Notes under the pieces: generated by a model
What the model was told of the DNA's origin: nothing
The model's input: only the letters and a program-made list of their open reading frames with translations
Database searches by the model: none
From: Candidatus Babeliales bacterium
GTDB taxonomy: Bacteria; Babelota; Babeliae; Babelales; JANWKD01
NCBI GenBank assembly: GCA_963762115.1
Contig: CAVXJH010000006.1
Coordinates: 192,001 to 256,000 of the forward strand
DNA length: 64,000 nucleotides
Direction of reading: 5' to 3'
Program-made: the position numbers and the translations under genes
Shown: piece after piece, positions 5,038 through 63,177 of the stretch
How positions within the stretch are numbered: the stretch's first letter is position 1
Layout of the letters: each line of letters opens with the position of its first letter

Positions 5038-6813
5038 ATGAGAAATGGTATGCAAAAAAATTATCTTCGCACTATTGGATGCGGTTCAGTTGATGAAAAA
5101 ATGCTCAATACGACAATTCATCTTTCAGGTTGGGTTGATGGACGTCGTGATCATGGCGGTCTTATTTTTATTGATTTGCGTGATCGTAGCGGTTTAATGC
5201 AACTTGTTTTTAACCCTGTATTTTCAGCCCAAGCACATAAAAAAGCGCATGAATTGCGTTCAGAATTTGTTATTTCTGTAACGGGTACCGTTGTTGCACG
5301 AAGTGCTGAAACGGTGAATGAAGAGTTGCCTACGGGCAGATGGGAATTGCAAGTAACTGAATTAATGGTGTTAAATACCTCAAAAGCTTTACCTTTTTCT
5401 CTTGATGCTGATGATATTGATGAAGAATTGCGTTTAAAGTATCGTTATCTTGATTTGCGTCGTCCTGCTATGCAGCGACGTCTTGCTTTGCGCAATGATA
5501 TTATTTTTGCTATGCGTTATTTTTTGCAACATAACGGTTTTTATGAAATTGAAACACCAATTTTAACGAAAAATACTCCTGAAGGTGCGCGAGAATTTAT
5601 CGTTCCTTCACGGCTGCACCAAGGCAGTTTTTATGCATTACCGCAATCACCACAACTTTATAAACAACTTTTGATGGCAAGTGGTTTTGAGCGTTATTTC
5701 CAAGTTGCGCGTTGTTTCAGAGATGAAGATTTACGAGCAGATCGTCAGCCTGAGTTTACGCAGCTTGACATAGAAATGTCGTTTGTAAAAGAAAATGATA
5801 TTATTGGTCTTATTGAAAATTTATTTCAATTTTTATTCAAAAAGATTTTTGATGTTGAGTTGACGTTACCATTGCCTCGCATGAACTATGATGAGGCTTT
5901 TGCTTTATATGGTTCTGATAAACCTGATTTGCGTTTTGATTTAAAAATTGTAGATTTTACCTCTGTTTTTCAAAACACAGAACTAAAATTTTTGCGTGCT
6001 GTGCTTGATAAAGGCGGTAAAATTGGCGGGTTGCAGGTTAAGAGTAAAAACTTTACGCGTTCTGAATTAGATGCCTATGTTGAATGGGCTCGTAAAGCGG
6101 GTTCCTCTGGTTTATTGTGGGTTCGTGTTGGTGAAAATAACACACTCGAAGCACCTGTTGCTAAATTTTTCCCACCTGATTTTTTTAATCAGTTGAAAAC
6201 AATATGTCCTTCACTTGAACAAGGTGACACCTTATTCCTGCTTGCAGGTCAATATGATGAAGCATGGGTTCATATTGGCAGATTGCGCCTTGAATTAGCG
6301 CGTGATTTGGGAATTATTCCTGTTGGAAAGCTACATTTATCATGGGTTACTGATTTCCCTCTTTTTGAATATGATAAAGAATCGAAACAATGGAATTCCA
6401 TGCATCATCCCTTTACTTCTCCGCAAGAAGGTTGGGAAAAACTTGAGCCTGGTCAAATGAAAGCACGTGCTTACGATATCATATTAAATGGCGTTGAACT
6501 TGGCGGTGGATCAATTCGTATTTTTAATAGTGAAGTTCAAAATAAAGTTTTCCAATTGCTTGGTCTTGATGAAAAAGCAATGCATGATAAATTTGGCTTT
6601 TTATTAGAAGCACAAGAATATGGTTTCCCACCGCATGGCGGCATTGCTTTAGGACTTGATCGTTTGCTTATGTTATTAACAAATGCTACCTCAATTCGTG
6701 AAGTTATTGCGTTCCCTAAAACGGCACGTGGTTATGATCCTATGATGCAATCGCCAACCGGTGTTGATGATAAGCAGCTTAAAGAATATGGTTTGCAGAA
6801 GATCAAGAAATAA
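5038..6813 (+). CDS. aspS: Aspartate-tRNA ligase (start may be 5050)
   Basis: RRDHGGLIFIDLRD, ALPQSPQLYKQLLM, CFRDEDLRADRQPEFTQLD and PPHGGIALGLDR motifs. Confidence 0.98.
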   Translation: MRNGMQKNYLRTIGCGSVDEKMLNTTIHLSGWVDGRRDHGGLIFIDLRDRSGLMQLVFNPVFSAQAHKKAHELRSEFVISVTGTVVARSAETVNEELPTGRWELQVTELMVLNTSKALPFSLDADDIDEELRLKYRYLDLRRPAMQRRLALRNDIIFAMRYFLQHNGFYEIETPILTKNTPEGAREFIVPSRLHQGSFYALPQSPQLYKQLLMASGFERYFQVARCFRDEDLRADRQPEFTQLDIEMSFVKENDIIGLIENLFQFLFKKIFDVELTLPLPRMNYDEAFALYGSDKPDLRFDLKIVDFTSVFQNTELKFLRAVLDKGGKIGGLQVKSKNFTRSELDAYVEWARKAGSSGLLWVRVGENNTLEAPVAKFFPPDFFNQLKTICPSLEQGDTLFLLAGQYDEAWVHIGRLRLELARDLGIIPVGKLHLSWVTDFPLFEYDKESKQWNSMHHPFTSPQEGWEKLEPGQMKARAYDIILNGVELGGGSIRIFNSEVQNKVFQLLGLDEKAMHDKFGFLLEAQEYGFPPHGGIALGLDRLLMLLTNATSIREVIAFPKTARGYDPMMQSPTGVDDKQLKEYGLQKIKK

Positions 6814-23248: not shown

Positions 23249-26155
23249 TTATTGAATTTTTGTTAGCTGTTCTTTTAAAGATGCAATCTTTGATTTAATG
23301 AATCCTACTTCTTGCTTTTTGTTATCTTTAAGCTGTTTTAAAAGAGTTTTGATTGTTGCTTTAACTTTAGCAGTTAATTGTGTATTTTTTTCATCGTCTT
23401 CTAAAACTGTTTCATATATATGAGTAACTTTTTTAATTAATGTATCCCATAATTTTTTAATGTTTTTTAATAAGGTAATTTCTGCTGTTGCAAAATCTTT
23501 ATTGGAACGAGGTAATTTTTTTCTGAAATCTTCTGACATATTTTTAAACAACATAATCTCGTCAACAAATTCTTTGTTCGTGCTTTCAGTAGGTTTTTTC
23601 AATAATGTTCTGAAAGTTTTTTTTAATTTTTTTTGAACTTCAGAGAGTTGGGTTACTTGTTTTTGAGCTGAAAAAACTTTTTTTAATTTTTTTTGCATTG
23701 CATGAGGTAATTCTGGCTCTAATTGTTCCACAAGGGGGTATAATTCAGCGCGTCTTTTTTGCATAATTTTTTTTATAAGTTGTAATTGCTCTTCCTGATT
23801 TAATAACAAAATATCTTTTTGAATGAGTGGATAAAAAATTTTCGAATCAAATTTAATTATTAGTTTAAAAAAACTAAATACTTTTTTCTTATTTTTGGGG
23901 TTATAGGATTTTTCTAGTACGAAAAAAAGATCATTATTAGCATTCTTTAAAATATATTTTGATAAAATTTGGCTAAAATTTGGAAATTCTTTTTGTACTA
24001 AGGGGTAAAATTCAGAAACTTTAAAATTGATACTATCTTGTAAAACTAATTGCTGATTTTCTTTTGAAAGTTTAGAGAATGAATTTTGTGCAACATCATA
24101 AAGCTCTTGAACATGGTTTTCTAATATTAATTTAAATAACGCTGGAGAATTTGATGCGATATTTTTTTGTATAAATTCTTCAATAATAGCATAAAGTTTT
24201 TTTCTTTTATTAAGGATAATTTTTTTTGCAAATAACAAAGTATCTTCAATGCCAAGAAATGGTGTTATAGCTTTTAATAAGGGGTGTATTTTTGAGGTGA
24301 ATAGTGGGTCTTGCGATAAAGTAATAAGCCAAATCTGTGCTTCTTCAATGTTGAATAAAAGTATATTTGTTATTTTATTATTATTGATAAAATCTTGATA
24401 ATGAGATGGATTAGGTTCGAAATTGCTTATCAGAGATGAAAAGTTTATTTGATATTGTTTAATAATTTTTAACAATGAGGTAAGATAACAGTGTGCAGGT
24501 TCAAAAGCTAATGAAAATATTGGGTTATGGTTGTGTTTGAAGGTAATAATCACATTATTTAAATTTTTAGTATCCAACGAAGCACTTGGTTCCCAAGTGA
24601 GATTTAATTGTTGTGCGCAAGAGCATAGAGTATCAAATTTCTCTTCGAGTGAAAGATTTTCAAAAGTCGAAGCATTGCCAAACATGCAGTAACTAATAAC
24701 GTTCATAACATTGTCAGCACTTGTTGTCATTTCACAAATAGGTTTTTCCTCAGGTTTATTATATATGACTCCTGAGCGTTCAGATACAACTTTATTCCAA
24801 GCATTATGCACTTTTAGAAATTGTGCTTTTAAAGGATCAGAATGTTGAAGATAAAAATTATTGAATTTTTTATCAAAAACGACCCCTTTTTTAATAAGAT
24901 CTTCATTAAGCGTAAGTTTAAAATTAAATAAATTTGGATTAAACATAATACTATTAATAAGGTTTCGTATTGCTGTTTCGACACAATCAGGAAATTTTAT
25001 ATTTTTATACTTTGATTCTGCAACACTATCAATTAAAGGTGGTAGTAGGTTATCCCAAATAGTTGATGCAAAGAGAAAAAAGACCGTTTTCTCGTAATCT
25101 TGCAAAACATTCTTTATCGTGATATCAGGTGAAAATGATGTTTTTAAGTATTCAAAATCATTTCGTGTATATGGAAGTAATGTTAAATAGGTTTGAAGTG
25201 CTTTTTCATCAAAAACTTCAGTATCAATTTGATAATGATCTTTAAAATTTTTTATAAAAAGAATAAGAGGGTCTTTAGATTCCATAATTTTCCATAAAAA
25301 TGATAAAAAAATCTGTTGGATGGTAAATGGTGGATATTGGTTTTTCTTTGATAAATTTTCATCGAAAGCATTAATGATGTGATGTATGAGATCATGTAGA
25401 TTTTTCTTTGATAAATCTTCTTTATAAAGTTGTTCATGTATTTTTTTTATGTCTGGTTTTTTTTCTAGCTGAATCAATGAACCATATTGCTTGGTTAATT
25501 TTTTTTGTTTCTTATATTTTTTTGTTAATTTTGCAGCAATACTCATAAATATATTTTTTGGAGCATCTTTTTGTTGTTCTTTAAGTGTTATTATATTGTT
25601 ATTTATTTTTTTTAAACGTATTAGATGAGCAAAATCTTCTGAAGAATTTATTGCACTTTTTACTATTTCTTCTTTTGTTATTTTAGCTGCATAATATAAA
25701 TCTTTAAAATGAATATCGCTTTTTATGCTTGTTTTAAGTTTCATAAAAAGCTCTTTTTTTATTTCTTCAGTTAATGAACTATCTTTTGTGTAAGGCTCCA
25801 AAATCGCCAGAATAATACCAATTGTTGACTCTTTAAAATAACGCGCTGGGTTTCTGTTTAAGGTCGTTATATCAAAGGTAACAAGATCTCTTTGTAAATA
25901 AAAAAGATTTCTTAAAAGTTGTATGGTGGCATGTTGCTTATTGCCATTTTTATATAAATTTTCAATAACATGATTATCCCACCAAAGAGCACCTTGTACT
26001 AAAGAAAGATGTTTATAATTTTCATGCACAATTGCATCAAGCCCATGAATGTCGGTGATTGAAAGTTCAGATTTAACACTTGTAACGTTGATTAAAAAAC
26101 AAAGGAAAAATATTTTTAATATGTTTTTTTGTGTGGTGATTTGAATGTTTTTCAT
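23249..26155 (-). CDS. Large exported hypothetical protein with a possible Cys-His catalytic domain
   Basis: 968-aa ORF with GAGG RBS and signal peptide; central FPDCVE...HNAWNKVVS...AHC; helical, Lys-rich C-terminus. Confidence 0.75.
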   Translation of the reverse strand: MKNIQITTQKNILKIFFLCFLINVTSVKSELSITDIHGLDAIVHENYKHLSLVQGALWWDNHVIENLYKNGNKQHATIQLLRNLFYLQRDLVTFDITTLNRNPARYFKESTIGIILAILEPYTKDSSLTEEIKKELFMKLKTSIKSDIHFKDLYYAAKITKEEIVKSAINSSEDFAHLIRLKKINNNIITLKEQQKDAPKNIFMSIAAKLTKKYKKQKKLTKQYGSLIQLEKKPDIKKIHEQLYKEDLSKKNLHDLIHHIINAFDENLSKKNQYPPFTIQQIFLSFLWKIMESKDPLILFIKNFKDHYQIDTEVFDEKALQTYLTLLPYTRNDFEYLKTSFSPDITIKNVLQDYEKTVFFLFASTIWDNLLPPLIDSVAESKYKNIKFPDCVETAIRNLINSIMFNPNLFNFKLTLNEDLIKKGVVFDKKFNNFYLQHSDPLKAQFLKVHNAWNKVVSERSGVIYNKPEEKPICEMTTSADNVMNVISYCMFGNASTFENLSLEEKFDTLCSCAQQLNLTWEPSASLDTKNLNNVIITFKHNHNPIFSLAFEPAHCYLTSLLKIIKQYQINFSSLISNFEPNPSHYQDFINNNKITNILLFNIEEAQIWLITLSQDPLFTSKIHPLLKAITPFLGIEDTLLFAKKIILNKRKKLYAIIEEFIQKNIASNSPALFKLILENHVQELYDVAQNSFSKLSKENQQLVLQDSINFKVSEFYPLVQKEFPNFSQILSKYILKNANNDLFFVLEKSYNPKNKKKVFSFFKLIIKFDSKIFYPLIQKDILLLNQEEQLQLIKKIMQKRRAELYPLVEQLEPELPHAMQKKLKKVFSAQKQVTQLSEVQKKLKKTFRTLLKKPTESTNKEFVDEIMLFKNMSEDFRKKLPRSNKDFATAEITLLKNIKKLWDTLIKKVTHIYETVLEDDEKNTQLTAKVKATIKTLLKQLKDNKKQEVGFIKSKIASLKEQLTKIQ

Positions 26156-26254
26156 TGCAAAATAACCTCTTTGATAAAAAAAATAATATTTTGTAATGAA
26201 TATATCTAAAATATAAAAATAAAATCAATAAAAACAATTAACGCTAATGCATCA

Positions 26255-27325
26255 TCAATGAGATAGTAAACAATACGCTGCGCCATATAAACTAATCTTT
26301 GGTTCAGTGATAACAAATATTGGCATATCGAGCAGCATTGCTTTCATAAAAGGATGTTGACAACCAAAAAGCTGTTCAAAGAATTCAGGTGTTGCAAACA
26401 ATGAACTATGCTTTATAGCAATTGCATTCGTAATATAAATGCCGCCATGAGGCAGAACTGCATATGCCATATTTCTGATTAATCGAGCATATAGTTTCAA
26501 ATAAAAATCAACAGCATCTTTGCATTGCTCGTCACTCGATGCATGAGTAAAAATCGCATCAGCATTTTTTGTCTCAAGCGTTGAATTATACTCTTTTTTG
26601 GTGTCGACAAAATCATAGGCTGCAACAATACCGCCTGTTGAACCAAGAATTTTTCCCCAAGTAATGATGTTTTCATCGATTCTTTTTTTCAAGAATGCAA
26701 TATATTCGAGTTCTTTAAGTGTTTGCGGGGCAAAATCCATATAACAAGCACCTAAAGGGAGAATGGTAGAGCTGCTTTGTTGTGGATTTTGAGTAAGTAA
26801 AGCAGACCCTAACCCTGCGCCTGCACCAATAATAAGTTTTGGTGCATTATTGCGCATAATGCCTTTGTTGATTTGAATGAGATTGCTTTCGTCAAGGGCA
26901 TTAATCCCATATGCTTGCACTTCAAAATCATTAATAACTAACACATGTTTTATTATATTTTTTTCAATAAGTTCATGACCATCAACAGCAAAAGTTAAAT
27001 GGGGTGATTGAATGAACATACGATCTTCTGAGGTGTTACCGGGGACGCCAAAACAGGCACGAGTGATGGTAATATCATTTTCATTTTTAAGACCTTCAAG
27101 GATATGTTGCATAAAATCACTAAAATGAGTGATCGAGGCTGTAGGATAGTATAAAGTCATAACATGCTCAGCTTTATTTTCATTAATTTGAAAAATACCA
27201 AGCTCAGTTTCATAGCGGCCAATATTTCCACCCATGATATATTCAGATTTAACTAAGTTGGCGTTAGTTAGTATGCCTAAAAGACTGAATACAAAAACTT
27301 TCCAGTTCATATTTTTTTCTTTCAT
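26255..27325 (-). CDS. Glucokinase-family protein, degenerate, with signal-peptide-like N-terminus (start may be 27310)
   Basis: ACFGVPG, INDFE, GAGAGLG, DFAP, GGIYI and LYGAA match Glk; the phosphate-1 loop and ExGH motif are altered. Confidence 0.8.
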   Translation of the reverse strand: MKEKNMNWKVFVFSLLGILTNANLVKSEYIMGGNIGRYETELGIFQINENKAEHVMTLYYPTASITHFSDFMQHILEGLKNENDITITRACFGVPGNTSEDRMFIQSPHLTFAVDGHELIEKNIIKHVLVINDFEVQAYGINALDESNLIQINKGIMRNNAPKLIIGAGAGLGSALLTQNPQQSSSTILPLGACYMDFAPQTLKELEYIAFLKKRIDENIITWGKILGSTGGIVAAYDFVDTKKEYNSTLETKNADAIFTHASSDEQCKDAVDFYLKLYARLIRNMAYAVLPHGGIYITNAIAIKHSSLFATPEFFEQLFGCQHPFMKAMLLDMPIFVITEPKISLYGAAYCLLSH

Positions 27326-27410
27326 TAAAATTGCATGAAATGTTCTTGAAAAGAGTAGCTTGAAACAAGCGAATTGTATACTCTATTGTTATAAAGTTAA
27401 TGGTGAATAA

Positions 27411-27839
27411 GTGAAAAACTATAGGGGTAAAATAGTGAATTTTCGTGCATTTAAACAAAATAAATTATGGAGAGATAAAGCAGTTGATATGACTGAAGCA
27501 AATGGCTCTAGAGTTCATTGGGAAAGGTTAAATGATGTTGAATTTTCTGAGCAATTAAAAATAAAATTTATGGAAGAAGCGCATGAGGTTTGTGCAGCAA
27601 AAACTAAAGAAGCATTGGTCGAAGAGCTTGCTGATATTTTAGAAGTTATTGGCTCACTATGTGAAGCTCATGATTTTACTTTACAGGATATTATGAATGC
27701 GCAATCCAAAAAACATCAAGAACGTGGTGGATTTGGTGGTCGAAAGTTTGTTACTCATGCAGAACATGAAGTTGGTAGTTTTGGAGAAAAATATTGTTTA
27801 GCTGATCCTGAAAAATATCCAGAAATTGAAAGTTATTAA
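27411..27839 (+). CDS. MazG-like / all-alpha NTP pyrophosphohydrolase
   Basis: NKLWRD, EEAHE, EELADILEV and K...RGGF motifs. Confidence 0.8.
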   Translation: MKNYRGKIVNFRAFKQNKLWRDKAVDMTEANGSRVHWERLNDVEFSEQLKIKFMEEAHEVCAAKTKEALVEELADILEVIGSLCEAHDFTLQDIMNAQSKKHQERGGFGGRKFVTHAEHEVGSFGEKYCLADPEKYPEIESY

Positions 27840-27848
27840 AATAATGAA
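27811..27848 (+). repeat. 38-bp perfect direct repeat, left copy (right copy 29243-29280)
   Basis: aaaaatatccagaaattgaaagttattaaaataatgaa is identical on both sides of the serine hydrolase gene. Confidence 0.95.
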
Positions 27849-27857
27849 TCGGACTTC

Positions 27858-29243
27858 ATGTTAAAGAAAATTAGTATAAAAAATTTATTTTTAATGGTGA
27901 GTTTTATATCTGCGATGACGAATGGCTCTACTGAAATAGCAGGTAAGCCAGATAATATTAAGACTATGAGCAAACAATTAGATGTATACATGGATGCATT
28001 AACAAAGCTAAATCGTTTTAGTGGTACGGTTATTGTTACAAAAGGAAATGAAATATTACTCAACAAAGGCTATGGATTTGCAAGTTTAGAATTTGAAGTT
28101 CCTAATACAGAACATACACTCTTTAGAATATGTTCAATTACTAAAATGGTTACTGCCGCAGCTCTTATGCAATTGCAAGAAAGAGGTTTGTTAAATGTTC
28201 ATGATGTTGTAAATAAATATATTCCTGATTTTCCTAGAGGTAATGAGATAACGATTCACCAATTGCTTTCGCATACTTCTGGAGTATCCTCTGAGAATTT
28301 TCCGCTTGAGATGGTTGTTCAACCAGCACATTTCGATCAAATAATCTCTTTTATTAAAAGTAAACCACTAGAATATGATCCTGGTTCAGATTATCGTTAT
28401 AGTAATGGCGGTTATTATGTGCTTTCACATATTATTGAAAAAGTTTCTGGAAAAACGTATGAATCATTTGTTAAAGAAAATATTTTAGTACCGAGTGGCA
28501 TGAAAGAGAGCTTTTTTCGTGAGCAAGAGTATGCAATTTTAAAAAATTGTGCTGTTGGCTATTGCTTGAATGAAAAAAATGAAATAGTAAATGGTCATTA
28601 TATTTATGAAAATTTTAAAGGCGGTGGCGGATTATTTTGTACAGCGCTTGATCTTTATAAATTTGCTCGATCATTGAATGCATTGGCATTGATTAATCAA
28701 AAATCTTTGAAAGCTATGGTTACGCCTTATCACCATCAAGAGAATTATGGGTACGGCTGTCACATTCAAGAGTTAATGAAAAAAAGATATATAGAACATG
28801 GTGGTATGTTATCAAGTGGATTTAAATCAAATGTAACTATATTTATCGATGATGAAATTTATATCGTGCTTTTAAGCAACCTTTTTTCTTCATGGGTTAA
28901 TGAAGCGCGTAATTCGCTTGCAGCAATCGTCTTAGGATTACCATATGACATTCCAAGTTTGCAAGTTATCAAGCTAAGTTCAGATGCCTATAATGATTAT
29001 GTAGGTTTGTATGACCATCCAGCTTTTAAGTTGGGTTATAAAATTGAAAGAAAAGGAGATTCACTCTATTTACCAGATAACATAGAACTTTCGGCCGTTG
29101 CAAAAGATCAGTTTATGACTTTAAATCGAAATGCAAACAATGTAGTTTATAGGTTTGCAAGAGATGAAACTGGATTAATAATACAATTGAGAATTATAGG
29201 TGGCGCACCTTATTTTGAAATACGATGTGATAAAATTAGATAA
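27858..29243 (+). CDS. Serine hydrolase, beta-lactamase class C / PBP-like family
   Basis: SITK (SxxK), LLSHTSG, YSN and HGG motifs; signal peptide. Confidence 0.92.
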   Translation: MLKKISIKNLFLMVSFISAMTNGSTEIAGKPDNIKTMSKQLDVYMDALTKLNRFSGTVIVTKGNEILLNKGYGFASLEFEVPNTEHTLFRICSITKMVTAAALMQLQERGLLNVHDVVNKYIPDFPRGNEITIHQLLSHTSGVSSENFPLEMVVQPAHFDQIISFIKSKPLEYDPGSDYRYSNGGYYVLSHIIEKVSGKTYESFVKENILVPSGMKESFFREQEYAILKNCAVGYCLNEKNEIVNGHYIYENFKGGGGLFCTALDLYKFARSLNALALINQKSLKAMVTPYHHQENYGYGCHIQELMKKRYIEHGGMLSSGFKSNVTIFIDDEIYIVLLSNLFSSWVNEARNSLAAIVLGLPYDIPSLQVIKLSSDAYNDYVGLYDHPAFKLGYKIERKGDSLYLPDNIELSAVAKDQFMTLNRNANNVVYRFARDETGLIIQLRIIGGAPYFEIRCDKIR

Positions 29244-29280
29244 AAAATATCCAGAAATTGAAAGTTATTAAAATAATGAA
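29243..29280 (+). repeat. 38-bp perfect direct repeat, right copy
   Basis: Identical to 27811-27848; supplies the ATG of the peptidase E gene. Confidence 0.95.
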
Positions 29281-29956
29281 ACAAATAATTGCAATTGGTG
29301 GCGGTGGTTTCACCAAAAAAGGTTGTTCATTAGCATTGGAAAGATATATCCTTGCGCAAACAAAAAAAGAGAATCCTAAGATATGCTTTTTGCCGCAAGC
29401 AAGCAATGAATCGCCTACTTACATTCTTAAATTTTTTGAATCCTTTCTCAGTTTGGATGCACAGCCTTCTTGGATTTCATTGTTTGGCAGTGTAAAAGAT
29501 TCTTGGAAAGAAAAGTTATTACAAGCCGATATTGTCTATGTTGGCGGTGGCAACACAAAAAGCATGATTGCATTATGGAAAGCATGGGGCGTTGATCATG
29601 TGTTGAAAGAAGCATATAACAAAGGTGTTGTAATGGCAGGATTAAGTGCCGGCATGATTTGTTGGTTTGAACAAGGTATTACTGATTCTATGTGGCCTTT
29701 GGGGTTTGTTGAAGGACTAGGCTTTTTGAAAGGAAGTGGTTGTCCGCATTTTGATTCTGAAGTTGAGCGTCAAGATGTGTATAAAAATTTGGTTGCATCT
29801 GGGCAAGTGAGTCCCGGTATTGCCTTGGAAGATGGGGTAGCAGCTCATTTTATTGATGGAAAATTATTCAAGATTGTTACTGAAATACAACATAAAAAAG
29901 CATTTCAAATTACTGCAACTGGGCAAGAAGCATTAAAAGCAGAGTTTATTTTGTAA
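29276..29956 (+). CDS. pepE: Peptidase E (S51 family)
   Basis: MKQIIAIGGGGF, YVGGGNT, GLSAG nucleophile and CPHFD; start placed at the internal ATG. Confidence 0.85.
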   Translation: MKQIIAIGGGGFTKKGCSLALERYILAQTKKENPKICFLPQASNESPTYILKFFESFLSLDAQPSWISLFGSVKDSWKEKLLQADIVYVGGGNTKSMIALWKAWGVDHVLKEAYNKGVVMAGLSAGMICWFEQGITDSMWPLGFVEGLGFLKGSGCPHFDSEVERQDVYKNLVASGQVSPGIALEDGVAAHFIDGKLFKIVTEIQHKKAFQITATGQEALKAEFIL

Positions 29957-29995
29957 AAATCAACGAGATAAATTGGTTTATATCAGGAAAATTGT

Positions 29996-30361
29996 ATGTA
30001 TTACATTCCTATAAATGATGGTTCTACTATTTCAATACATGAACATGAACTCAAGGATAATGTTAACATTGCAGAGTACGAAAAAGAAGTAGCAGATACC
30101 TTAAAAAATTTGAAAGTGCCAGGTTTACTGCATGCATATTTACTTAAAGGTTTTAAAGGTGAACGAACGAATAGCTATTCAGTTGTGTGGGTTTGGAAAA
30201 ATAAGCAAGTAATTAAAGAGAATTTTGGAACTCTTGATAATCCCAAATGGCCTGAAGATTGGCTTTATTATGAAAATGAAATATTGGCAAAATATTTGAC
30301 GTGTCATCCTGATAAAATTAATTTTACTTGTTATGACATTATTGATGTGATTAATTTTTAA
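29996..30361 (+). CDS. Hypothetical protein (possible dimeric alpha-beta barrel)
   Basis: AGGA RBS; 121 aa with LLKGFKGER and YxVVWVW; family uncertain. Confidence 0.55.
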   Translation: MYYIPINDGSTISIHEHELKDNVNIAEYEKEVADTLKNLKVPGLLHAYLLKGFKGERTNSYSVVWVWKNKQVIKENFGTLDNPKWPEDWLYYENEILAKYLTCHPDKINFTCYDIIDVINF

Positions 30362-30467
30362 TGAAAATACGTGAAAAATATAGCAGTTGTTGAGTTGTCG
30401 ACAATTTGTCGATAACTGAAATTAATCGCTTTAACAAACAAAAAAGACAATAGAAAAATCAAAGAAG

Positions 30468-31007
30468 ATGTTTAAATCTAAAAACTTTTTACTCCTATTT
30501 TTGTTCATATCAACCATAAGTTATGGTGTTGATAAGCCTCTATTTTCAACTAACCAAAAAAAATGTACTGGATGCGCATTATTAAATCGTGAAATTGAAA
30601 GCGTCGGTGGAATTATTGCTTCAACCCTATACTTTGAAGCACAACAAGATTGCTTCATTCCTATTCCAGGATTTATTACTATAAACTCAAGACGACATGT
30701 TCAAAGCATTGATGATTTTACTCAAGAAGAACGAGCTGATTTTATTGAATTTTTGTATAAAGTGAGAAAAAATATGCGAGAGACATTGAACATTGAAACA
30801 ATATACATGATACAAGAAGAAGATGCTTCACATTTTCATGTGTGGTTATTTCCACACTATGATTGGATGGAAAAGTTTGAAAAGAAGGTTTCTTCAATTA
30901 TTTCTATTATGAGGTGGGCAAAAGAACATTTAAAAACAGAAGAAAATTTGGAACATGTTCTTATGTCTGCCCAAATTTTGAAACAATCATTTGCCATATT
31001 TCATTAA
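30468..31007 (+). CDS. HIT-family protein with signal peptide
   Basis: CxxC, PIPG...RRHV and HFHVWLFP (variant HIT motif). Confidence 0.8.
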   Translation: MFKSKNFLLLFLFISTISYGVDKPLFSTNQKKCTGCALLNREIESVGGIIASTLYFEAQQDCFIPIPGFITINSRRHVQSIDDFTQEERADFIEFLYKVRKNMRETLNIETIYMIQEEDASHFHVWLFPHYDWMEKFEKKVSSIISIMRWAKEHLKTEENLEHVLMSAQILKQSFAIFH

Positions 31008-31013
31008 AGATCT

Positions 31014-31583
31014 TTATTTATAAAAAATGTTTAAATTTTCTGGCCCAAAACGGAACGGCAATAAATCTTCAATAGTGGCACAGGCAACAATACCATTACC
31101 TTCAAGGTTGAGAATTTTTACTTTGGTATCATTGCAACAATTTTCCCAAATAATTTGTAAGCAATGTCCGCAAGTAACGTTAGAAATAGCAATATTGCTT
31201 GGTTCTGTTAAGGAGATCTTAACATCTTTAAGCGCTCCTACCACGGCAATTTTTTCAATTTTTGATGGTCCGATCGTTGCAATCATACTATCAATAGCGT
31301 TTTGTTCTGCGTGAGTGGTTTGTGTATAAGTGCAACGTTCAACATTGCATCCAACATGAATTGTCCCTTTATCACTTAAGATGGCAACACCAACATGATA
31401 GTTTGAATAAGGTGCTTGAGCATTATTGCGCACTTTAAGTGCTTCTTGAAATAGATTTTTTTCATCTTCTGGTAATTGATCAAAAGGTATTTTTTGAATA
31501 CGAACTGTTTTTTCGATTTTGTGCACTTTGATTTCTTTGAGCGTTGTTTTTGTATAAAGAAATTTTTTTACTATAATTACCAC
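31014..31583 (-). CDS. cdd: Cytidine deaminase (start uncertain)
   Basis: APYSNYHVG, GCNVE, HAE, CGHC and LLPFRF motifs. Confidence 0.9.
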   Translation of the reverse strand: MVIIVKKFLYTKTTLKEIKVHKIEKTVRIQKIPFDQLPEDEKNLFQEALKVRNNAQAPYSNYHVGVAILSDKGTIHVGCNVERCTYTQTTHAEQNAIDSMIATIGPSKIEKIAVVGALKDVKISLTEPSNIAISNVTCGHCLQIIWENCCNDTKVKILNLEGNGIVACATIEDLLPFRFGPENLNIFYK

Positions 31584-31651
31584 AATAATTAAAAATAGTT
31601 AAAAAAATCTGTATATTTATAGAAATAGCACAATTATGAGAAGGAAATAGT

Positions 31652-32167
31652 ATGTATAATGCAATTGAGTTGAATAAAAATGCGTATATAAATCAAATGA
31701 TTATTGCATGGCAAACGTACATACATACAAAAGCAAATTGGCATGAATTAGTTAATAGTGTTGTGCCAAAATATACAGGCAACGGCGCAATTTATGAACT
31801 GCCTAATTTTTTGAATCGGCCAAACGAAAGTTTTGCTGTTTGTGATATGCGAGAACTACTTTTTAGTGAACCGCATTATCATCCTGATAATGATATCGAA
31901 ATTTATTTTGTTCTTGAGGGAAGTGCCCTTGTTGTAGTTGGCAATAATGAACAGCATGCACATAAAGGGGATGTGATAATTATTCCTTCAAATACGGCAC
32001 ATTTTACTATTCCAAACAATGAATTTATCATGGCCATAGTTAACACGCCGCTATTTAAATTTGAAAGTTATATCGTTGTTAATCAAACTAATCCAGATGT
32101 TATTTTTGATCATGAATATTTTATTGAGTTAACCACGAAATGTAATGTGAAAGGAAAAACATGGTAA
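31652..32167 (+). CDS. Cupin-domain protein
   Basis: PHYH...EIYFVLEG...GDVIIIP...H cupin signature. Confidence 0.85.
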   Translation: MYNAIELNKNAYINQMIIAWQTYIHTKANWHELVNSVVPKYTGNGAIYELPNFLNRPNESFAVCDMRELLFSEPHYHPDNDIEIYFVLEGSALVVVGNNEQHAHKGDVIIIPSNTAHFTIPNNEFIMAIVNTPLFKFESYIVVNQTNPDVIFDHEYFIELTTKCNVKGKTW

Positions 32168-32745
32168 TACCAATTTTATTAACAGTCTTATTGGGAAATC
32201 AAATTACTGATATTATTCCAACGATTGCAAAACTTAGAATCAAATCATTCAAAGGATATCCTTATCTTTATAATGGCACATTAGAAAGTGAACTTGAATA
32301 TCTTGAATTGTATAAAAATAATGAACATGCGTTAGTGGTCCAAGAAAGCGAATCAGCTGAAACAGTAATGCTTATTGGAGCGCCATTAATTGATATTTTC
32401 CCTGAAGCAAAAACAATCTTTGAATCTGCGCAGTATAATGCAGATGAATGTTATTATGCTGAAGAAGTTGTTTTGCCATTGGCAAATATGCCACTTATTC
32501 TTGAAGCATTTGAAGCGCAGGTGATCAAATGGAACTATAAAAATCTCTGTTTAATTACCGTAAAAGAAGAAGAAAATCATCCTTTAAAGCCAGAAAACTA
32601 TCAAAGTATTGAGCCATTGTTTGAAGAGCTGGGTTTTTCAAAAACAGATCTTTCAATTTCCGCGGCATATTCTACTTTTTGTGCTGGTGGTTCTGTGCAA
32701 CAACGCGGGCATGAATTTGTGTTTTGGATAAAAAAATTGAATTAA
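32161..32745 (+). CDS. GNAT-like acetyltransferase with eroded motif A
   Basis: FKGYPYLY, HPLKP, LGFSKT and FWIKKL are shared with the 32822 and 48901 paralogs; QxxGxG is absent. Confidence 0.7.
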   Translation: MVIPILLTVLLGNQITDIIPTIAKLRIKSFKGYPYLYNGTLESELEYLELYKNNEHALVVQESESAETVMLIGAPLIDIFPEAKTIFESAQYNADECYYAEEVVLPLANMPLILEAFEAQVIKWNYKNLCLITVKEEENHPLKPENYQSIEPLFEELGFSKTDLSISAAYSTFCAGGSVQQRGHEFVFWIKKLN

Positions 32746-32821
32746 TTATTACATTACTCTAAAAGTGAAAATTGTTATTCAAGAAATTTAATAGCAACGT
32801 ATTTAGTTGGTTCAAAATGTC

Positions 32822-33430
32822 TTACTTATTTAATTCTTTAGTCCAAAAAGTAAGAGTATTTTCGTGCATTTCTACTGTTCCTTGTTCATCCATAATAGTT
32901 GGCCATGATTCTTTAATTGTTAAAGAAGTTTTTGAAAAACCTAAGCGTTGCCAAAATATTGCAGGATCTTTGAAGTTTGTAGGTTTTAAAGGATGATCTT
33001 CTTTGCGTTCAACAGTACAAAGACAAATTTTTTTATATCCCCAAAATCGAGCTTTCTTTTCTAGTTTTTTATAAAGTTTTGAACCGATTCCTTTATTTTG
33101 ATACTGAGATAAAACAATGACATCATTAATATGAAAAAAATCAGATGGGTCTAGATTGTTTTTTTCAAAAAGTTCAGCTTCATATGAATATGCTAATAAT
33201 GGAATGCCAGTTGCAATAGCTATTACGGTATGATCATTAGTCTGTGCAATTAAAAATGTACAATGTGGTTCTTGTGAAAACTTTTTGAAATTATCTTTTA
33301 CGCCCTCAAAGGTTCCTTGGTTTAAGATAGGATATTCTTTAAAAATATTAAGCCATCCGGGTAGTATACTTTCTGGAATATTTAATATTTGTAGTCCAAT
33401 ATACATAGTGATTATTAAAGAAGATGTCAT
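32822..33430 (-). CDS. GNAT acetyltransferase
   Basis: VIVLSQYQNKGIG motif A, HPLKP and WQRLGF. Confidence 0.88.
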   Translation of the reverse strand: MTSSLIITMYIGLQILNIPESILPGWLNIFKEYPILNQGTFEGVKDNFKKFSQEPHCTFLIAQTNDHTVIAIATGIPLLAYSYEAELFEKNNLDPSDFFHINDVIVLSQYQNKGIGSKLYKKLEKKARFWGYKKICLCTVERKEDHPLKPTNFKDPAIFWQRLGFSKTSLTIKESWPTIMDEQGTVEMHENTLTFWTKELNK

Positions 33431-33508
33431 AGGTTAATCCTATTGTGTTAGATAATGGTTTTTAATAATAGTATAGAATTATGCTAAATTTCTGCTATAT
33501 ATCCTCTG

Positions 33509-34417
33509 TTAATGGCTATGCAGGCGACTTAAATTCTGTTTGGAATGTACTATTTTCTTCTCTTCGCGATAATACAAAAACAAGCTAATGTTTATGATCA
33601 AAAATGCGCAATAATAATGCCAGGAAATAGCTTTATTGAAAAAAAGAGCTCCATAAAATGTAGTAAAGAACGGGCATAACAAGCTGCCAAGTACTATAAA
33701 TGTTTGGCTATATTTTTTGAGTAACAGTGCATACCAATTGTGGCACACAATATTGCTTACCAAAATAATAACACTTATCAAAGTAACAAAGGGAAAAAAC
33801 TCAGTAACAAAAGGAGTTTTTTCGATAGAGAGACTTGTAAACAATGCTAACAATCCACCGCATGTCATGGTAATGCTATTAATTAAGAATGGGTGATAGT
33901 GAAGTTCAGTTATTAATTTTCTAATAAGAAGCCAACCATAACTAAAACTTATCACTGAACAAAGTAGTGCAAAATCTGGCAACCCAAAGGAAGTTAGTGC
34001 AAGCGATTGCTGTCGTAACACCATTGGGCTAATAAGAAGAATTGCACCGTAACTGATGCACAATAAGCTCATTTTGCGTGCATTGAATTTTTCAATAGCA
34101 AAAAACAGAACACAAAAATAGGTGATTAACGGTCCAGAATTATAGAGCATAAATGCGCGTGATTCAGGGCAATAAAGTAGTCCGTAATAACGCAAAATGT
34201 AGGGGAAATATAAAGCAAAGAGGATTATCTGAATGAAATAAAAAATATGACGCTGAGGAATTTTGAATTTTTTTTGATAAAAGAAACAATAACCAAACAA
34301 AATAATGCCTGCAATGCTCATACGAATGCCAATTAAAAAAAATGGTTGTGTATGCTGTAAAAGCATTTTAGTTAAAGAGAAAGTACTTAAAGCATGAAGA
34401 AGTACTACTGAAATCAT
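33509..34417 (-). CDS. DMT/EamA-family transporter
   Basis: About 10 hydrophobic segments in two EamA-like halves; PFFLIGIRM motif. Confidence 0.85.
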   Translation of the reverse strand: MISVVLLHALSTFSLTKMLLQHTQPFFLIGIRMSIAGIILFGYCFFYQKKFKIPQRHIFYFIQIILFALYFPYILRYYGLLYCPESRAFMLYNSGPLITYFCVLFFAIEKFNARKMSLLCISYGAILLISPMVLRQQSLALTSFGLPDFALLCSVISFSYGWLLIRKLITELHYHPFLINSITMTCGGLLALFTSLSIEKTPFVTEFFPFVTLISVIILVSNIVCHNWYALLLKKYSQTFIVLGSLLCPFFTTFYGALFFNKAISWHYYCAFLIINISLFLYYREEKKIVHSKQNLSRLHSH

Positions 34418-34432
34418 TACATTCCTTGGGAA

Positions 34433-35098
34433 TTAGTCTTGCTCTTTTGTATCAATTGGACAAGCATGATAATTTAAAACAGTAGTCTGTAATTCTTGTG
34501 CTGCTTGAACTAATATTTCCTCTTTATAACTGTCTGATCGATCGTTTAAAGTAACTAAAAATGAAGAACAGTTTTTATCATTTATACAACGTCTAAAGCT
34601 TGTTCTTTTTGCAAGGAAATCAAATTTTAGGCATAACGATGATTGATTTAATCTATAAAGAGCATCATGATTATCATCTCGACGAGACTTCGCCTTTTTT
34701 TTCTTAAAATGTAATAAAAAAGATCTTTTTTTGAGATGTCGATATTCTTTGGCGCCACGTTCAAATTCTTTGGCAAGTTCTTCTGCTTTTTTCAAAACTT
34801 GTGGACATTCTTGCTGACGTAGGTGTGTTAATTTTTCTGTGGTATCAACCAATCTTGTGCAAGCATTATCATCAAGGCTTTCTCCGCATTGAGTAGCCAG
34901 ATCTGCTACTTCAAAAAAATTATCTAATGGAAAGTCATGTAATTTTTTTAAAAAAACGGCTGTTTCGACCCAGCATGCATATTTTAGTTGCCCTTTTTCA
35001 GTTTTTTGTAATAAATAGGGTATTTTAGGATTTTCCATTGAATAACAGGTGTTGATAGAGATTGTTAAAAGAATTAATGCAAAATATTTTGTTAACAT
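34433..35098 (-). CDS. Hypothetical exported protein with basic NLS-like patch
   Basis: Signal peptide ending YS-ME; KKRSFLLHFKKKKAKSRR. Confidence 0.7.
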   Translation of the reverse strand: MLTKYFALILLTISINTCYSMENPKIPYLLQKTEKGQLKYACWVETAVFLKKLHDFPLDNFFEVADLATQCGESLDDNACTRLVDTTEKLTHLRQQECPQVLKKAEELAKEFERGAKEYRHLKKRSFLLHFKKKKAKSRRDDNHDALYRLNQSSLCLKFDFLAKRTSFRRCINDKNCSSFLVTLNDRSDSYKEEILVQAAQELQTTVLNYHACPIDTKEQD

Positions 35099-35256
35099 AT
35101 TTCCCTTCTTTTTTTGTGATCAGTATTCTTATGATAAAAGCTATTGCAGTATAGTAATCTTTTTTAAGAAAGTTAATTTTTTGGAAAGAAATCAATAAGT
35201 ATATTTTTTTAAGAAAAGAGACAAATTGCTGAAATTTAAAGATGGCAGAAATAATA

Positions 35257-35988
35257 TTAATTTGCTTCCTTTTCTTTTTCTGCATGCTCTTGTTTTAGGA
35301 GTTGTAAAATTTCTTGAGTGTTTTTGAGGGCTCTTTCTCTATGCTCCTGATCTTTATCTTTATCATCATTCCAAAAGATAATTTCATGATTATAGAGCTG
35401 TTTATAGCGTTTTTTAATAAAATCAAGAGTGTTAGATTCATTAACAATTAATTCAGGGTCGCCATCATGTTCTAACAATTTTTTGAAAAGAACGAGAGCT
35501 GGTCGGTAACCATATGAAGCTGATTCTGTTGTGAATCTCAATAATGAGATTTTTTTTTGATCAAAAGAGTTGATTATAAAGCTGTTTGGTGTAAATTTGG
35601 TTGCTTCAAAATAGGTATTCAATACTTGATCTAAAATACCAAGTTCATTATATTTTTCTGCCCAAAAAAGAATATGTGATCTAAAGAATTGAAATGATTC
35701 TTTTTGGATGTTTGGATTTTCTAAATAAGATGTGAAATAGTCATAAAATTTTTCGGATTCAGATTTTTTAACAGTTAATATTTCTTGTGGGGAAACATAT
35801 TCTTTTTTTCTTGCTTTAGCGCGTTTTCTTTGCAAGCCTCTTCTTTGACCCTTGGTTATTTTTGGTGCTGTACTACTTTCTTGAATGATAGAAGTTGCTG
35901 AAAGTGCAGAAGCACCTTCTTCCATGGCAATTAATAAATAAGAACTTGATATGGTTAACAAGAACATTGAATATTTTAAAAACTTCAT
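35257..35988 (-). CDS. Exported protein of a local paralog family (SASYGY domain)
   Basis: AAGGAG RBS before the ATG at 35988; signal peptide; domain shared with 36118 and 41053. Confidence 0.8.
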   Translation of the reverse strand: MKFLKYSMFLLTISSSYLLIAMEEGASALSATSIIQESSTAPKITKGQRRGLQRKRAKARKKEYVSPQEILTVKKSESEKFYDYFTSYLENPNIQKESFQFFRSHILFWAEKYNELGILDQVLNTYFEATKFTPNSFIINSFDQKKISLLRFTTESASYGYRPALVLFKKLLEHDGDPELIVNESNTLDFIKKRYKQLYNHEIIFWNDDKDKDQEHRERALKNTQEILQLLKQEHAEKEKEAN

Positions 35989-36061
35989 AGAAAACTCCTT
36001 TTTTTCTTGAAAAATTTTTTTAAGATTCTTGCTTACTCTAATAGAGATTGAGATTTGATGC

Positions 36062-36092
36062 AAAAAAAGGCAGAGAAAATTCTCTGCCTTTT
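36062..36092 (-). terminator. Rho-independent terminator
   Basis: 12-bp stem aaaaggcagaga/tctctgcctttt followed by a U-run on the minus strand, downstream of 36118-37464. Confidence 0.8.
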
Positions 36093-36117
36093 ATATTTAC
36101 AAAATGTTGGAAAAAAA

Positions 36118-37464
36118 TTAGTCAGCTTTTTGTTGCGCTTTTTCTTTTTTTTCTTGTTCTTCTTTAATGCGTTGCGCAATATATTTCGATGCTTCACAAC
36201 GTTTTTCTGCTATAGCCGTTTTTGCTATTCTCGTATACTCGGTAGAATAATTGCCTTTGCGTGGGGTATGAATTTGCTGTTTAATAAAATGAGAAGCATG
36301 ATTACAATAATAATCACATTCATTGTTAACATCTTCTTCGAGGTTGGTTTTTCTGTCGCTATGAATATAATCGTCTTCTGTAACAACTGCTGCATCACCA
36401 CCACGGAGTAGTAATTTTTCAAAAAGAATTCGATGCTTTTTTTTGCCGGAATTCGCTGCTTTAACGGCGATATATTGGAATAGAGTATTTCTATCTGTTG
36501 AATATTCAGGGAAATTAGTAAAGCCAAAAAACGTAGTCTCTCTTCCTCTATGCTTCATCCATTTTTCAATAACTGAATTTGGATTCTTTTTCGTTTTTTT
36601 AAAAAAATAATCAAGAGCTTTATCTAAGATGTCTAATTTTTCAAATTTTTCGGCATTTTTGATTAGAGGGTTAAGTTGATAAACTATATTATTATGAGTT
36701 TGATGTCCTCTTACTTTTTCTTTAAGATCTTTTTTGAAATCACTGAGGGCTTTTTTACCTTCTTTAACGTTTTTAAGGCGCTGCAAAATTCCTTTTATTT
36801 TTTTACATCCTTGGGTATTATTTCCGTTATATCCGTGACATAAAAATTGATCATATCTTTTTTCAATACAATCAATGGTATTAGATCCATTGATTACTAG
36901 TTCGGGATCACCGCCACGCTCTAACAATTTTTTAAAAAGAATTTCGGCTGGTTCATAACCATATGAAGCAGAATCAGTTATGAATTGAAAGAAAGAAGTT
37001 TTTTCTTTATCAACAGTACCGATAAGTTTTATCATTGTGTTTGGCGTTGTCTTTGTGATTTCAAAATAGGTATCCAATACTTCATCAAGAATGCCAAGTC
37101 TATCATATTTTTCTGCCCAGAAAAGTATATCGCTATTAAAGAAATCGTAAATAGGGGAACTTATTTCTCTGTTGTACACTTCCCCCAATGATTCTCGGGC
37201 ATCTTTTTTATTTAACAATAGATTAAGCGCATAATTTTCTTGGTTTATTAATGCATCGAGTTTAGATTTGAAAGCATTTAATACGGTTACAGATTCAGGT
37301 TCAACAGCTTCAACTTTTGGCGGCGTGCATTCATCAGGAGTAACAGAACCAAAAGAATCGATGGTTTCAGGACCTATTTTGGGCGATGGAACTTCCCATG
37401 CTGCAAGTGCATGAGCGTTGTACCCAGCGAGCAATGCAATAAAAAGTATTTTTTGTATTTTCAT
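36118..37464 (-). CDS. Exported protein with two copies of the SASYGY-family domain
   Basis: Signal peptide from MKIQKILF; AEK..LGILD..LD.YF..TK..PN...LF.KLL.RGGD occurs twice. Confidence 0.8.
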   Translation of the reverse strand: MKIQKILFIALLAGYNAHALAAWEVPSPKIGPETIDSFGSVTPDECTPPKVEAVEPESVTVLNAFKSKLDALINQENYALNLLLNKKDARESLGEVYNREISSPIYDFFNSDILFWAEKYDRLGILDEVLDTYFEITKTTPNTMIKLIGTVDKEKTSFFQFITDSASYGYEPAEILFKKLLERGGDPELVINGSNTIDCIEKRYDQFLCHGYNGNNTQGCKKIKGILQRLKNVKEGKKALSDFKKDLKEKVRGHQTHNNIVYQLNPLIKNAEKFEKLDILDKALDYFFKKTKKNPNSVIEKWMKHRGRETTFFGFTNFPEYSTDRNTLFQYIAVKAANSGKKKHRILFEKLLLRGGDAAVVTEDDYIHSDRKTNLEEDVNNECDYYCNHASHFIKQQIHTPRKGNYSTEYTRIAKTAIAEKRCEASKYIAQRIKEEQEKKEKAQQKAD

Positions 37465-37618
37465 GAAATTATTTCTTCCATTCATTTTTAAAATAGTAAC
37501 ATTAATAAATAGTATATAGTAATTATGGCTACTTTCAAGCAAACTAAAAACAATTTATAATTTCAGTCAGAAATTATCATTCTGTACAAAGTGTTACTTG
37601 AAATTATCAAATTTGTTT

Positions 37619-38677
37619 TTACGGTGCTTTTTCTTGTTGCGCAGCTTTTTGTTTTGTTCTAAAAAGCTCTCTTGTTTTCTTATTGGTGCGAATATAACCT
37701 TCTTCATTTTTTCTTTGTGTTTTTGCTAATCTGAGAGGGGTTATAGATCCAATTTTGCTTTCTTTATGTCTGCAGATTGCATATTTGTTAGCACCACATT
37801 CAAGTAATATTCTTGCTTTTTTATACCGTTTAAATTTTACCGCTTCATGCAAGGGGGTTCCATATTCATTTTCACAAATATTTATGTCTGCACCATGATT
37901 GATAAGAATTCTTGCATTTTTGTGTGACGCAAAATGTAAAGGCGTTCTGCCATATTTATCTTGAACATTAATGTCATCAAGTGCTCCATTATTAAGAAGT
38001 ACTTTTATGAATTTTTTACTTTTTGCTCGTTGTGCAGTTGTTTCATCATAGTGCCATACAGCTCTATGCAAAGGTGTTTGTCCTGCAAGGTTGCTCCTGC
38101 CCCATGTTCTTGCATGAACATCAGCACCATTTTTGATCAAAATTTTTGCAACTTTTGGTGATGTTGCATTATGTAAAGGGGTGTCGCCAAACTCAGTTTT
38201 TGTGTTTACATTAGCTCCGAGTTGTATTAAAAGCTTTACACTTTTAGGTTGTTTTAATATTTCTTGGCAATTCAATGGTGTATAGCCACCGCGTGTTCTT
38301 GCATGAATATTAGCACCTCGATTTATTAGAAGCTTGACGCATTCCGGTGTTGCGGCACGATGTAAAGGGGTATCATTAATTTCTCCTTTTAAATGCACAT
38401 CAGCTCCTTTATTGAGGAGTAATTCCATTATTTTTGCATTTCCTGCTTCCGCTATTTTATGTAATAAAGTATCGCCACATTTATCTTGTGTGTTTATGTC
38501 AGAACTATCACATTTTTCAATGAAAGTAGTTAATTTTGTATCTTTTTCTTCTTGCGTTAAGTTTTTATATTCTTTACTATTTATAAAATCAATTATTTCT
38601 GTGACGGTTGAAGCGGCAATGTTACTACAAGTAAGCATCGTGAAAAAAGTTAGATTTAATAAAATTTTTTTGTTCAT
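37619..38677 (-). CDS. Exported ankyrin-repeat protein
   Basis: Signal peptide; repeated G(D/Q/R)TPLH...L...GAD(V/I) units. Confidence 0.92.
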   Translation of the reverse strand: MNKKILLNLTFFTMLTCSNIAASTVTEIIDFINSKEYKNLTQEEKDTKLTTFIEKCDSSDINTQDKCGDTLLHKIAEAGNAKIMELLLNKGADVHLKGEINDTPLHRAATPECVKLLINRGANIHARTRGGYTPLNCQEILKQPKSVKLLIQLGANVNTKTEFGDTPLHNATSPKVAKILIKNGADVHARTWGRSNLAGQTPLHRAVWHYDETTAQRAKSKKFIKVLLNNGALDDINVQDKYGRTPLHFASHKNARILINHGADINICENEYGTPLHEAVKFKRYKKARILLECGANKYAICRHKESKIGSITPLRLAKTQRKNEEGYIRTNKKTRELFRTKQKAAQQEKAP

Positions 38678-38915
38678 GATTATTACCTTATGTTATAAAA
38701 TTAATCTTACATAATAGTGTATTCTCTTTTTAGCTATAATCAATTCAAAATTCTTACTATAAAAAATCTCTATTATGCAACTTATATTAAGGCAAATTGA
38801 GATAATCGTTTTTGCCAAAAATATGAAAAACTTTTATTGTTATAAATAATATTATTTAAATAAATTAAAACTATAAAAATTCAGTTATGAAATTTTATAG
38901 GGGTGGGGATATTTC

Positions 38916-39293
38916 ATGAATAAGAAACTCAAAGCTTTTTTACTATTTCTTGTTTCTGCAGGACAAAGTGCTGCCTTACAGAATGGTTTAGATATTTATG
39001 TTGAGCAAAATCAAGGGGAAATTAATAAACAAAAATTAGCTCAACAGATAAAAAGTCTCATTCGTGAGGAAAAAGTATATGAAGTATATGTACTTATTAA
39101 TTCTGAAACATTGCATCATTATTCACAAGGAAATAAAGAGCTTGGAGAAGATATAATCGATCTTCATGATGCATTTATAGACAGAGACGAGGCACAAATA
39201 AAACTTGATGAATTTTGCAGAAAATGGGACTTAGAGAATATAAATATATCAGAAGTAATTCGTCTAGAGCACGTTAAAATTAAGAAAAAGTGA
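38916..39293 (+). CDS. Hypothetical exported protein
   Basis: GGGGA RBS and signal-peptide-like N-terminus. Confidence 0.6.
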   Translation: MNKKLKAFLLFLVSAGQSAALQNGLDIYVEQNQGEINKQKLAQQIKSLIREEKVYEVYVLINSETLHHYSQGNKELGEDIIDLHDAFIDRDEAQIKLDEFCRKWDLENINISEVIRLEHVKIKKK

Positions 39294-61966: not shown

Positions 61967-62013
61967 AGTGATTGTGTTAAAAGTCAAATATTTTTTAATA
62001 AAGCTAAACAATA

Positions 62014-62955: not shown

Positions 62956-62959
62956 AAAT

Positions 62960-63163: not shown

Positions 63164-63177
63164 TGATTTAACATACA

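Follow-up and report, generated by a model that had tools for sequence, protein, structure and literature searches.

The hydrolase locus

The window (the whole stretch of DNA that was analysed, 64,000 nucleotides) contains a serine hydrolase gene that lies between a MazG-like gene and a PepE-like gene and is flanked by two copies of a 38-bp direct repeat. The features of the locus are the following.

23249..39293, no strand: accessory block of about 16 kb, which contains the mazG-like, hydrolase and PepE-like genes
27435..27839, + strand: MazG-like (PRA-PH/MazG) gene, 134 aa, GTG start (Pfam PF03819/PF01503); the anchor gene, duplicated at its 3' end
27811..27848, + strand: left 38-bp repeat, made up of the final 29 nt of the MazG-like ORF, a 4-nt spacer and ATGAA
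27844..27864, + strand: six-codon mini-ORF that begins at the duplicated start codon of the pepE-like gene and overlaps the hydrolase start
27849..27857, + strand: 9-nt leader, the sole non-coding unique DNA of the insert
27858..29243, + strand: cargo serine hydrolase, 461 aa (PF00144 and DUF3471), with S93-x-x-K96, Y181-x-N183 and H314-G-G and an intact native C-terminus
29243..29280, + strand: right 38-bp repeat, made up of the displaced mazG-like end and the pepE-like gene start (its last 5 nt are the start of 29276-29956)
29276..29956, + strand: PepE-like peptidase S51 (Pfam), 226 aa, with a start that agrees with those of its homologues (MKQIIAIGGG-type)

Comparison of the two repeat copies (27811-27848 and 29243-29280, spacing 1432) showed that they are 100% identical, as the first-pass annotation had stated; the chance expectation for any such 38-nt pair in 64 kb is about 2e-12. 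The 38-mer was found only twice in the 1.53-Mb genome under study (G000), even when nine mismatches were allowed. The annotation had described the repeat as the last codons of the mazG-like gene, the spacer and the pepE-like ATG, and the insert as the hydrolase ORF plus 9 nt, and both descriptions were borne out: the repeat reads as 29 nt, 4 nt and ATGAA, and the unique DNA (27849-29242, 1394 nt) consists of 9 nt and the hydrolase ORF minus the final A of its TAA stop codon, this A being the first base of the right repeat. Translational coupling is possible, given the overlap of the mini-ORF with the hydrolase start.

The insert carries one ORF and no other mobile element, its base composition is equal to that of its surroundings and, as had been noted, the 38-bp duplication is far longer than the usual IS target repeats. 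The reported lack of a transposase, an integrase and an attC in the insert was confirmed, with no hairpin better than shuffles at either junction on either strand (z +0.5 to +1.0) and no Rfam match in 22-42 kb of the window. No terminal inverted repeat was located at the insert ends among the longest 25 of 32 inverted repeats, promoter and terminator scans gave results at chance level, and the 38-mer had no match in viral contigs, in which only two distant homologues of the hydrolase were present. The IS481 and IS110 genes of the window are more than 30 kb from the insert; an IS110 transposase gene is located there between two IS481 fragments (61595-63750), which suggests that one element was inserted in the other.

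The accessory block, which includes MazG, HIT, cupin, GNAT and similar genes, is absent from the congeneric genome G001, where the flanking moxR and AAA_18 genes are 2.4 kb apart. The 134-aa form of the MazG-like protein is the recorded form, and its homologues were found in 95 of the 261 genomes of the class. The name pepE, used in the first-pass annotation, could be kept only as PepE-like, the peptidase S51 protein scoring 25 bits with the PepE model against a cut-off of 156. The 121-aa ORF that comes after this gene (29996-30361) had no Pfam or NCBIfam match. In a protein cluster look-up, every protein found was a singleton cluster on one or two contigs.

Identity and distribution of the hydrolase

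The PF00144 domain and the SxxK, YxN and H-x-G motifs of the cargo protein identify it by sequence as an S12-type serine hydrolase. In an alignment of 21 sequences, S93, K96, Y181 and N183 were invariant and H314 and G315 nearly so. The label beta-lactamase-like describes a fold only, and the protein scores far under the class C beta-lactamase cut-off of NCBIfam NF033085 (74 bits versus 415). The cargo shares SxxK, YxN, HGG and PF00144 with the peptidase S12/class C beta-lactamase-like hydrolases and also has DUF3471; it differs from that group in falling under every NCBIfam cut-off shown and in having as its nearest relatives (49-68%) a small clade, the sole named member of which is from Ca. 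Babeliaceae (68% identity). Its best PDB match was 2qmi (E 1e-34) and it resembles D-aminopeptidase and AmpH. Its predicted function is that of an S12-type D-amino-peptidase or esterase, and export is predicted as well, from a signal peptide judged by eye only.

Matches to the hydrolase at E 1e-40 were obtained in 38 of the 261 class genomes. The close clade (48-66%) is represented in only four genomes besides G000, all of another family. At the same threshold G000 itself had one match only and its four family members had none. A metagenome scan with the single hydrolase protein gave no match, and a scan with the hydrolase alignment gave three close loci of 80, one of which was the G085 contig again and one of which was too short. 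A GTDB-wide scan gave relatives at 40% identity at most.

We rejected a mobile cassette specific to the hydrolase as the main reading, the loci of G071, G090, G091 and L156 having no flanking repeat. A flanking repeat was present in only one of the five other loci of the close clade; the G071 copy lies between two IS3-type genes and the G090 and G091 copies are broken. As a control, an exact flanking repeat of at least 16 was present in 8 of 129 locus records of distant hydrolases (cases not inspected singly). The closest genome homologue (66%, L141:5171-11728 in G071) has beside it a gene with an EndoU domain and another, small partner gene, and the group is flanked by the two IS3-type transposase genes in a composite-transposon-like manner.

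Gene-end scars in the genome

We scanned each of the 1289 ORFs of G000 for a nearby copy of its own last 45 nt, paralogue ends being excluded. The first-pass annotation had proposed a genome scan for flanking repeats, and this one was productive: 16 copies of an ORF's own 3' end were located downstream within 5 kb and one upstream (binomial p 1e-4 for 16/17), and a looser 8-kb pass gave 17 downstream and three upstream. Visual inspection removed four of the 16 downstream cases: two belonged to a paralogue array, one was of promoter type and one lay in a stretch rich in repeats. The 12 clean scars that were kept, the focal one included, are 31-126 bp long and 87-100% identical. The focal scar is likely the youngest of the 12, since it is the only perfect one.

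The targets include aspS, maf, murB and a gene of the rodA/ftsW family, and a further one that we take to be priA. Each of the 12 scars has its own unrelated repeat, and their left ends are variable. At four targets the displaced copies number two or three and are separated from one another by different genes (nested). No paralogue of the cargo follows the displaced copy in 10 of the 12 scars; at the other two, aspS and murB, the cargo and the next gene are paralogous. The aspS scar is made up as follows.

6771..6813, + strand: in-gene copy, the final 43 nt of aspS, with its end at the stop codon
10137..10179, + strand: displaced copy, 91% identical, with four changed codons, all synonymous

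Its cargo is two ankyrin genes (6832-8196 and 8226-9920). A third ankyrin paralogue is located after the displaced copy, and a related array occupies the same place in G001.

Comparison of the copies in the 11 non-identical pairs showed that 43 of 64 changed codons were synonymous and 21 were not, whereas 38-45% would be expected to be synonymous if a duplicate had simply decayed (P 2e-6 to 3e-4). Two lineage-specific targets ran in the opposite direction (5 synonymous versus 13 non-synonymous) and, when they were left out, 38 of 46 changes were synonymous. The repeat ended 0-13 nt past the stop codon in 10 of the 12 scars, and exactly at the stop in four. The combined p for ends near the stop was 8e-6, under a null of uniform stop position that ignores the faster erosion of non-coding DNA. 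The synonymous bias and the ends near the stop codon point to two working alleles that would have been joined late. The synonymous bias could also have arisen if the allele of the working gene was replaced later.

The gene-end scar pattern is strong in G000 and thinner elsewhere. The downstream and upstream counts were 5 and 1 in G085 (624 ORFs), 3 and 1 in G092 (943 ORFs), 2 and 1 in other Babeliae loci (218 ORFs) and 2 and 0 in non-Babeliae loci (701 ORFs), not all of the counts outside G000 being clean. Clean scars numbered 12 in 1289 ORFs in G000 and 1 in 701 in the non-Babeliae loci (p 0.04; the control loci are short).

Several other repeats were observed in G000. At G000:C6:76728-81450 there are four copies of the end of a 915-aa gene, two of them with the same upstream junction; the genes between the copies are a pair of 96 and 89 aa, which we presume to be toxin-antitoxin-like, a 219-aa gene and an 862-aa gene. 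Mirror-type scars, in which a promoter and a gene 5' end are duplicated around inserted ORFs (57-139 bp, 91-96% identity, no statistics), were seen at G000:C7:20152/21433, C7:22397/24373 and C3:135674/141542. The region G000:C5:166500-177300 has dense dispersed repeats of 20-110 bp, of several kinds, and few ORFs.

Empty sites and the G085 insertion

The empty site that the first-pass annotation had suggested looking for was absent at the focal locus and present elsewhere. The mazG-then-pepE adjacency was found in none of the 260 other Babeliae genomes, none of which is conspecific (480 loci checked), so the direction of the focal event, a gain, is inferred. The donor arrangement, a mazG adjoining a hydrolase of the close clade, was not found in the 260 other genomes. 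In G001, the empty-site gene order was present at maf and rodA and was not clean at murB or aspS. The contigs of run X1, from a 99%-identical organism, span neither junction and leave a hole at 27434-29334; gaps of about 2 kb are seen in X1 over core genes as well, so this one says nothing on the focal site.

G085 contains a homologue of the hydrolase (56% identity) that is flanked, together with about 540 nt upstream of its likely start, by identical 44-bp copies of the end of a different gene. G092, which is 93% identical to G085, has one copy and no insert, and constitutes an empty site. The sequence downstream in G092 follows the displaced copy of G085, and the in-gene copy of G085 ends in different codons. 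An alignment of 416 kb between G085 (0.80 Mb covered of about 1.0 Mb) and G092 (1.2 covered of 1.6 Mb) revealed 32 indels, and the hydrolase site was the only one with a long, perfect repeat not of tRNA origin. Seven more indels scored, and these were accounted for by paralogue duplications, weak matches, the end of a tRNA and a repeat resembling a terminator.

The mazG end was rejected as a dedicated att site, a degenerate form of the motif being found in 43 of the 261 genomes and nearly always at the gene itself. Extra copies of the mazG end were found in G083 (an orphan end) and in G239 and G020 (longer pseudogene pieces), and the mazG end is at most a weak hotspot. In G083 (L145:8399-11659), a distant pepE-like gene, mazG, a PAF-AH-type hydrolase and a NUDIX fusion are co-oriented; the hydrolase lies downstream of the mazG of G083 itself and has a diverged mazG end fused on as its C-terminus, an arrangement that fits displacement of a gene end at mazG too. 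In G239 (L144:8387-12200), two tandem units, each ending in a degenerate mazG fragment, are located upstream of an intact mazG.

Comparison with known systems

The footprint called insertion with long target duplication was reportedly named by Nobusato et al. in 2000. Furuta, Abe and Kobayashi (2010) gave as its criteria RM cargo, an insert of less than 20 kb and a repeat of more than 30 bp; they proposed DNA breakage as a hypothesis for its cause and found most further cases in naturally competent species (PMC2853133). Two other papers (PMC4978471 and PMC3154945) only cite it, as far as their accessible text goes. The focal insertion resembles the class so described in its size, in its repeat of more than 30 bp that is unique in the genome and in its lack of a mobility gene; the repeat over a gene 3' end is also common to the focal site and to the 46-bp cases of H. 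influenzae. It differs from the published cases in that their cargo is RM genes, whose breakage of DNA is the suggested cause, while the cargo here is a hydrolase and, in other scars, ankyrin and unknown genes; the focal insert contains no RM genes (PF00144 and DUF3471 only). Twelve scars in one genome, and copies that look like two alleles, also set G000 apart from those cases. The focal insertion works like the long-target-duplication class and is not an RM member of it. The word "synonymous" is absent from the main text of the 2010 survey (PMC2853133).

Homology-facilitated illegitimate recombination (HFIR) has been proposed for the T6SS arrays that stand behind an anchor gene in Vibrio (Kirchberger et al. 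2017, PMC5361080). When DNA with one-sided homology was introduced into E. coli, 56 of 60 clones had duplications of 109-950 bp, which were ascribed to re-circularisation and a single crossover (Amarir-Bouhram et al. 2011, PMC3240628). The scars described here would share with HFIR and single crossover one homologous anchor, one illegitimate joint, the use of host enzymes only and repeated events that build arrays behind a conserved anchor, and the circle route gives target duplications. In classical HFIR, by contrast, the recipient loses about 1 kb of its DNA. The duplications made in the laboratory (PMC3240628) spanned 109-950 bp, against 31-126 bp here, and the Vibrio arrays are confined to T6SS loci (PMC5361080) whereas the anchors here include the ends of housekeeping genes.

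Like an integron cassette, the focal insert is a promoterless, nearly ORF-only unit in line behind another gene; unlike one, it has no attC hairpin, no integron integrase and no common recombination site. The catalytic domains of the two PF00589 proteins scored 194 and 196 bits for XerC/XerD and 101 and 110 for integron integrase, and no integron integrase was found in G000 (genome 95% complete). The route of gene-cassette capture put forward in the first-pass annotation found no support, given the lack of an attC fold, the presence of only XerC/XerD-like tyrosine recombinases and the unrelated repeats of the scars. Precise excision of the gene, also put forward there, would be possible by the geometry of the repeats. 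The focal event is a real, non-RM variant of a known footprint and not an integron-like cassette.

Mechanism and alternative explanations

We consider it somewhat probable that the hydrolase was gained when DNA of a close relative recombined at the common mazG-like end, without a transposase or integrase of its own. The anatomy of the locus, the like footprint in G085 with its empty site in G092 and the 11 other scars of G000 support this reading. The incoming DNA would consist of the end of the anchor gene and the cargo. Recombination at the common gene end would push the resident end downstream. An illegitimate joint would link the far end of the fragment to a site that lies 30-130 nt within the anchor gene; the fragment could have circularised first and then undergone a single crossover, or a linear piece could have entered by HFIR. 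The incoming allele would restore the anchor gene, so that the ends of housekeeping genes could tolerate insertion and be hit repeatedly, which would lead to nested arrays. The recombination proteins of the host would do the work, although 38 bp is short for RecA, and natural transformation would be the likely route of entry. The ComEC family was present in five of five genomes tested and DprA in two of four, both being present in G000; DprA was not found in G085 and G092 (67% and 88% complete).

The focal repeat itself argues against such a capture, as it has no differences between its copies and runs 9 nt past the stop codon into the pepE-like start, so that the donor would have needed those 9 nt before its hydrolase. 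An exact duplication explains the focal case at least as simply, and the focal pair, having no differences between its copies, is the least diagnostic of the scars. Further points against capture are the two lineage-specific targets with mostly non-synonymous changes, the removal of four cases by visual inspection, and the scarcity of such repeats among the other close-clade hydrolase loci (one of five) and the indels between G085 and G092 (one of 32). Since this pair cannot show two alleles and its 9-nt overrun fits duplication too, we hold capture from a relative to be only somewhat probable and give appreciable, though minor, weight to a true target duplication, in which a staggered break or a stalled fork was repaired with a foreign fragment and both copies derive from resident sequence. 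The core repeats of the focal and G085 sites, both 100% identical, and the inclusion of the spacer and the next start codon in the focal repeat agree with the latter, and Furuta et al. (2010) suggested double-strand breakage for the same footprint (PMC2853133); it does not, however, predict the synonymous bias and the ends at stop codons of the older scars, and the cargo encodes no nuclease. We find it rather unlikely that a tandem segmental duplication, followed by deletions that left 38 bp of redundancy, moved a resident hydrolase beside mazG. Tandem paralogue arrays are numerous in the genome, the cargo at aspS and murB is paralogous to the gene that follows, as this reading predicts, and G239 has its tandemly duplicated mazG pseudogene pieces, but several precise events would be needed, there is a single hydrolase match in G000 and none in its four family members (E 1e-40), 10 of 12 scars are without paralogy and G092 has no insert at the G085 site.

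Integrases often target, and then restore, gene 3' ends, and genes such as those of MazG, HIT, cupin and GNAT type, found in the block, are typical of cassette arrays. A site-specific cassette or decayed integrative element, with the repeat as att core and its integrase acting in trans or lost, would also account for nested copies that resemble the repeated use of one site. We nevertheless judge it very unlikely: a search for tyrosine recombinases gave only two PF00589 matches, which score best as XerC and XerD, there is no attC fold, the twelve unrelated repeats of 31-126 bp have variable left ends and the 38-mer was not found in viral contigs. An assembly artefact, from a strain mixture or a repeat loop in the metagenome assembly, is the least probable explanation and hardly credible, even though neither junction is spanned by an independent contig. 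The contig is 586 kb long in a genome of seven contigs, the same footprint is present in an independent assembly (G085) with an empty sister site, and the copies in most of the other scars differ (87-97% identity), as those of a collapsed repeat would not.

Implications

The focal event, taken singly, is ordinary. The footprint itself is already in print, reportedly named in 2000 and, in the 2010 survey, accompanied by a hypothesis of its cause only; what is new here is a dozen graded gene-end scars and an allele signature. A literature search whose coverage left out supplements and most subscription journals gave no paper on such scars in Babeliae and no report of a synonymous bias between copies, which is no proof of novelty, and the terms competence, horizontal and direct repeat are absent from the accessible text of Yeoh et al. 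(PMC4776705).

With twelve scars of different ages in a single genome, the cause of the footprint becomes testable, and the synonymous bias and the ends at stop codons, which separate a donor allele from a true duplication, are applicable to any published case. If the gene end does act as a landing pad, the synonymous bias would supply, for insertion with long target duplication in general, the mechanistic signature that has been missing.

We propose tentatively, as a reading that falls a little short of even chances, that Babeliae routinely gain genes at the last codons of resident genes, those of housekeeping genes too. The gene-end allele of a relative would bring its neighbour, repair the gene and leave the old end behind, repeatedly, and integron-like arrays would result without a dedicated enzyme. 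If this is true, conserved gene ends would be hotspots, and small host-dependent bacteria would gain and stack accessory genes by host recombination alone.
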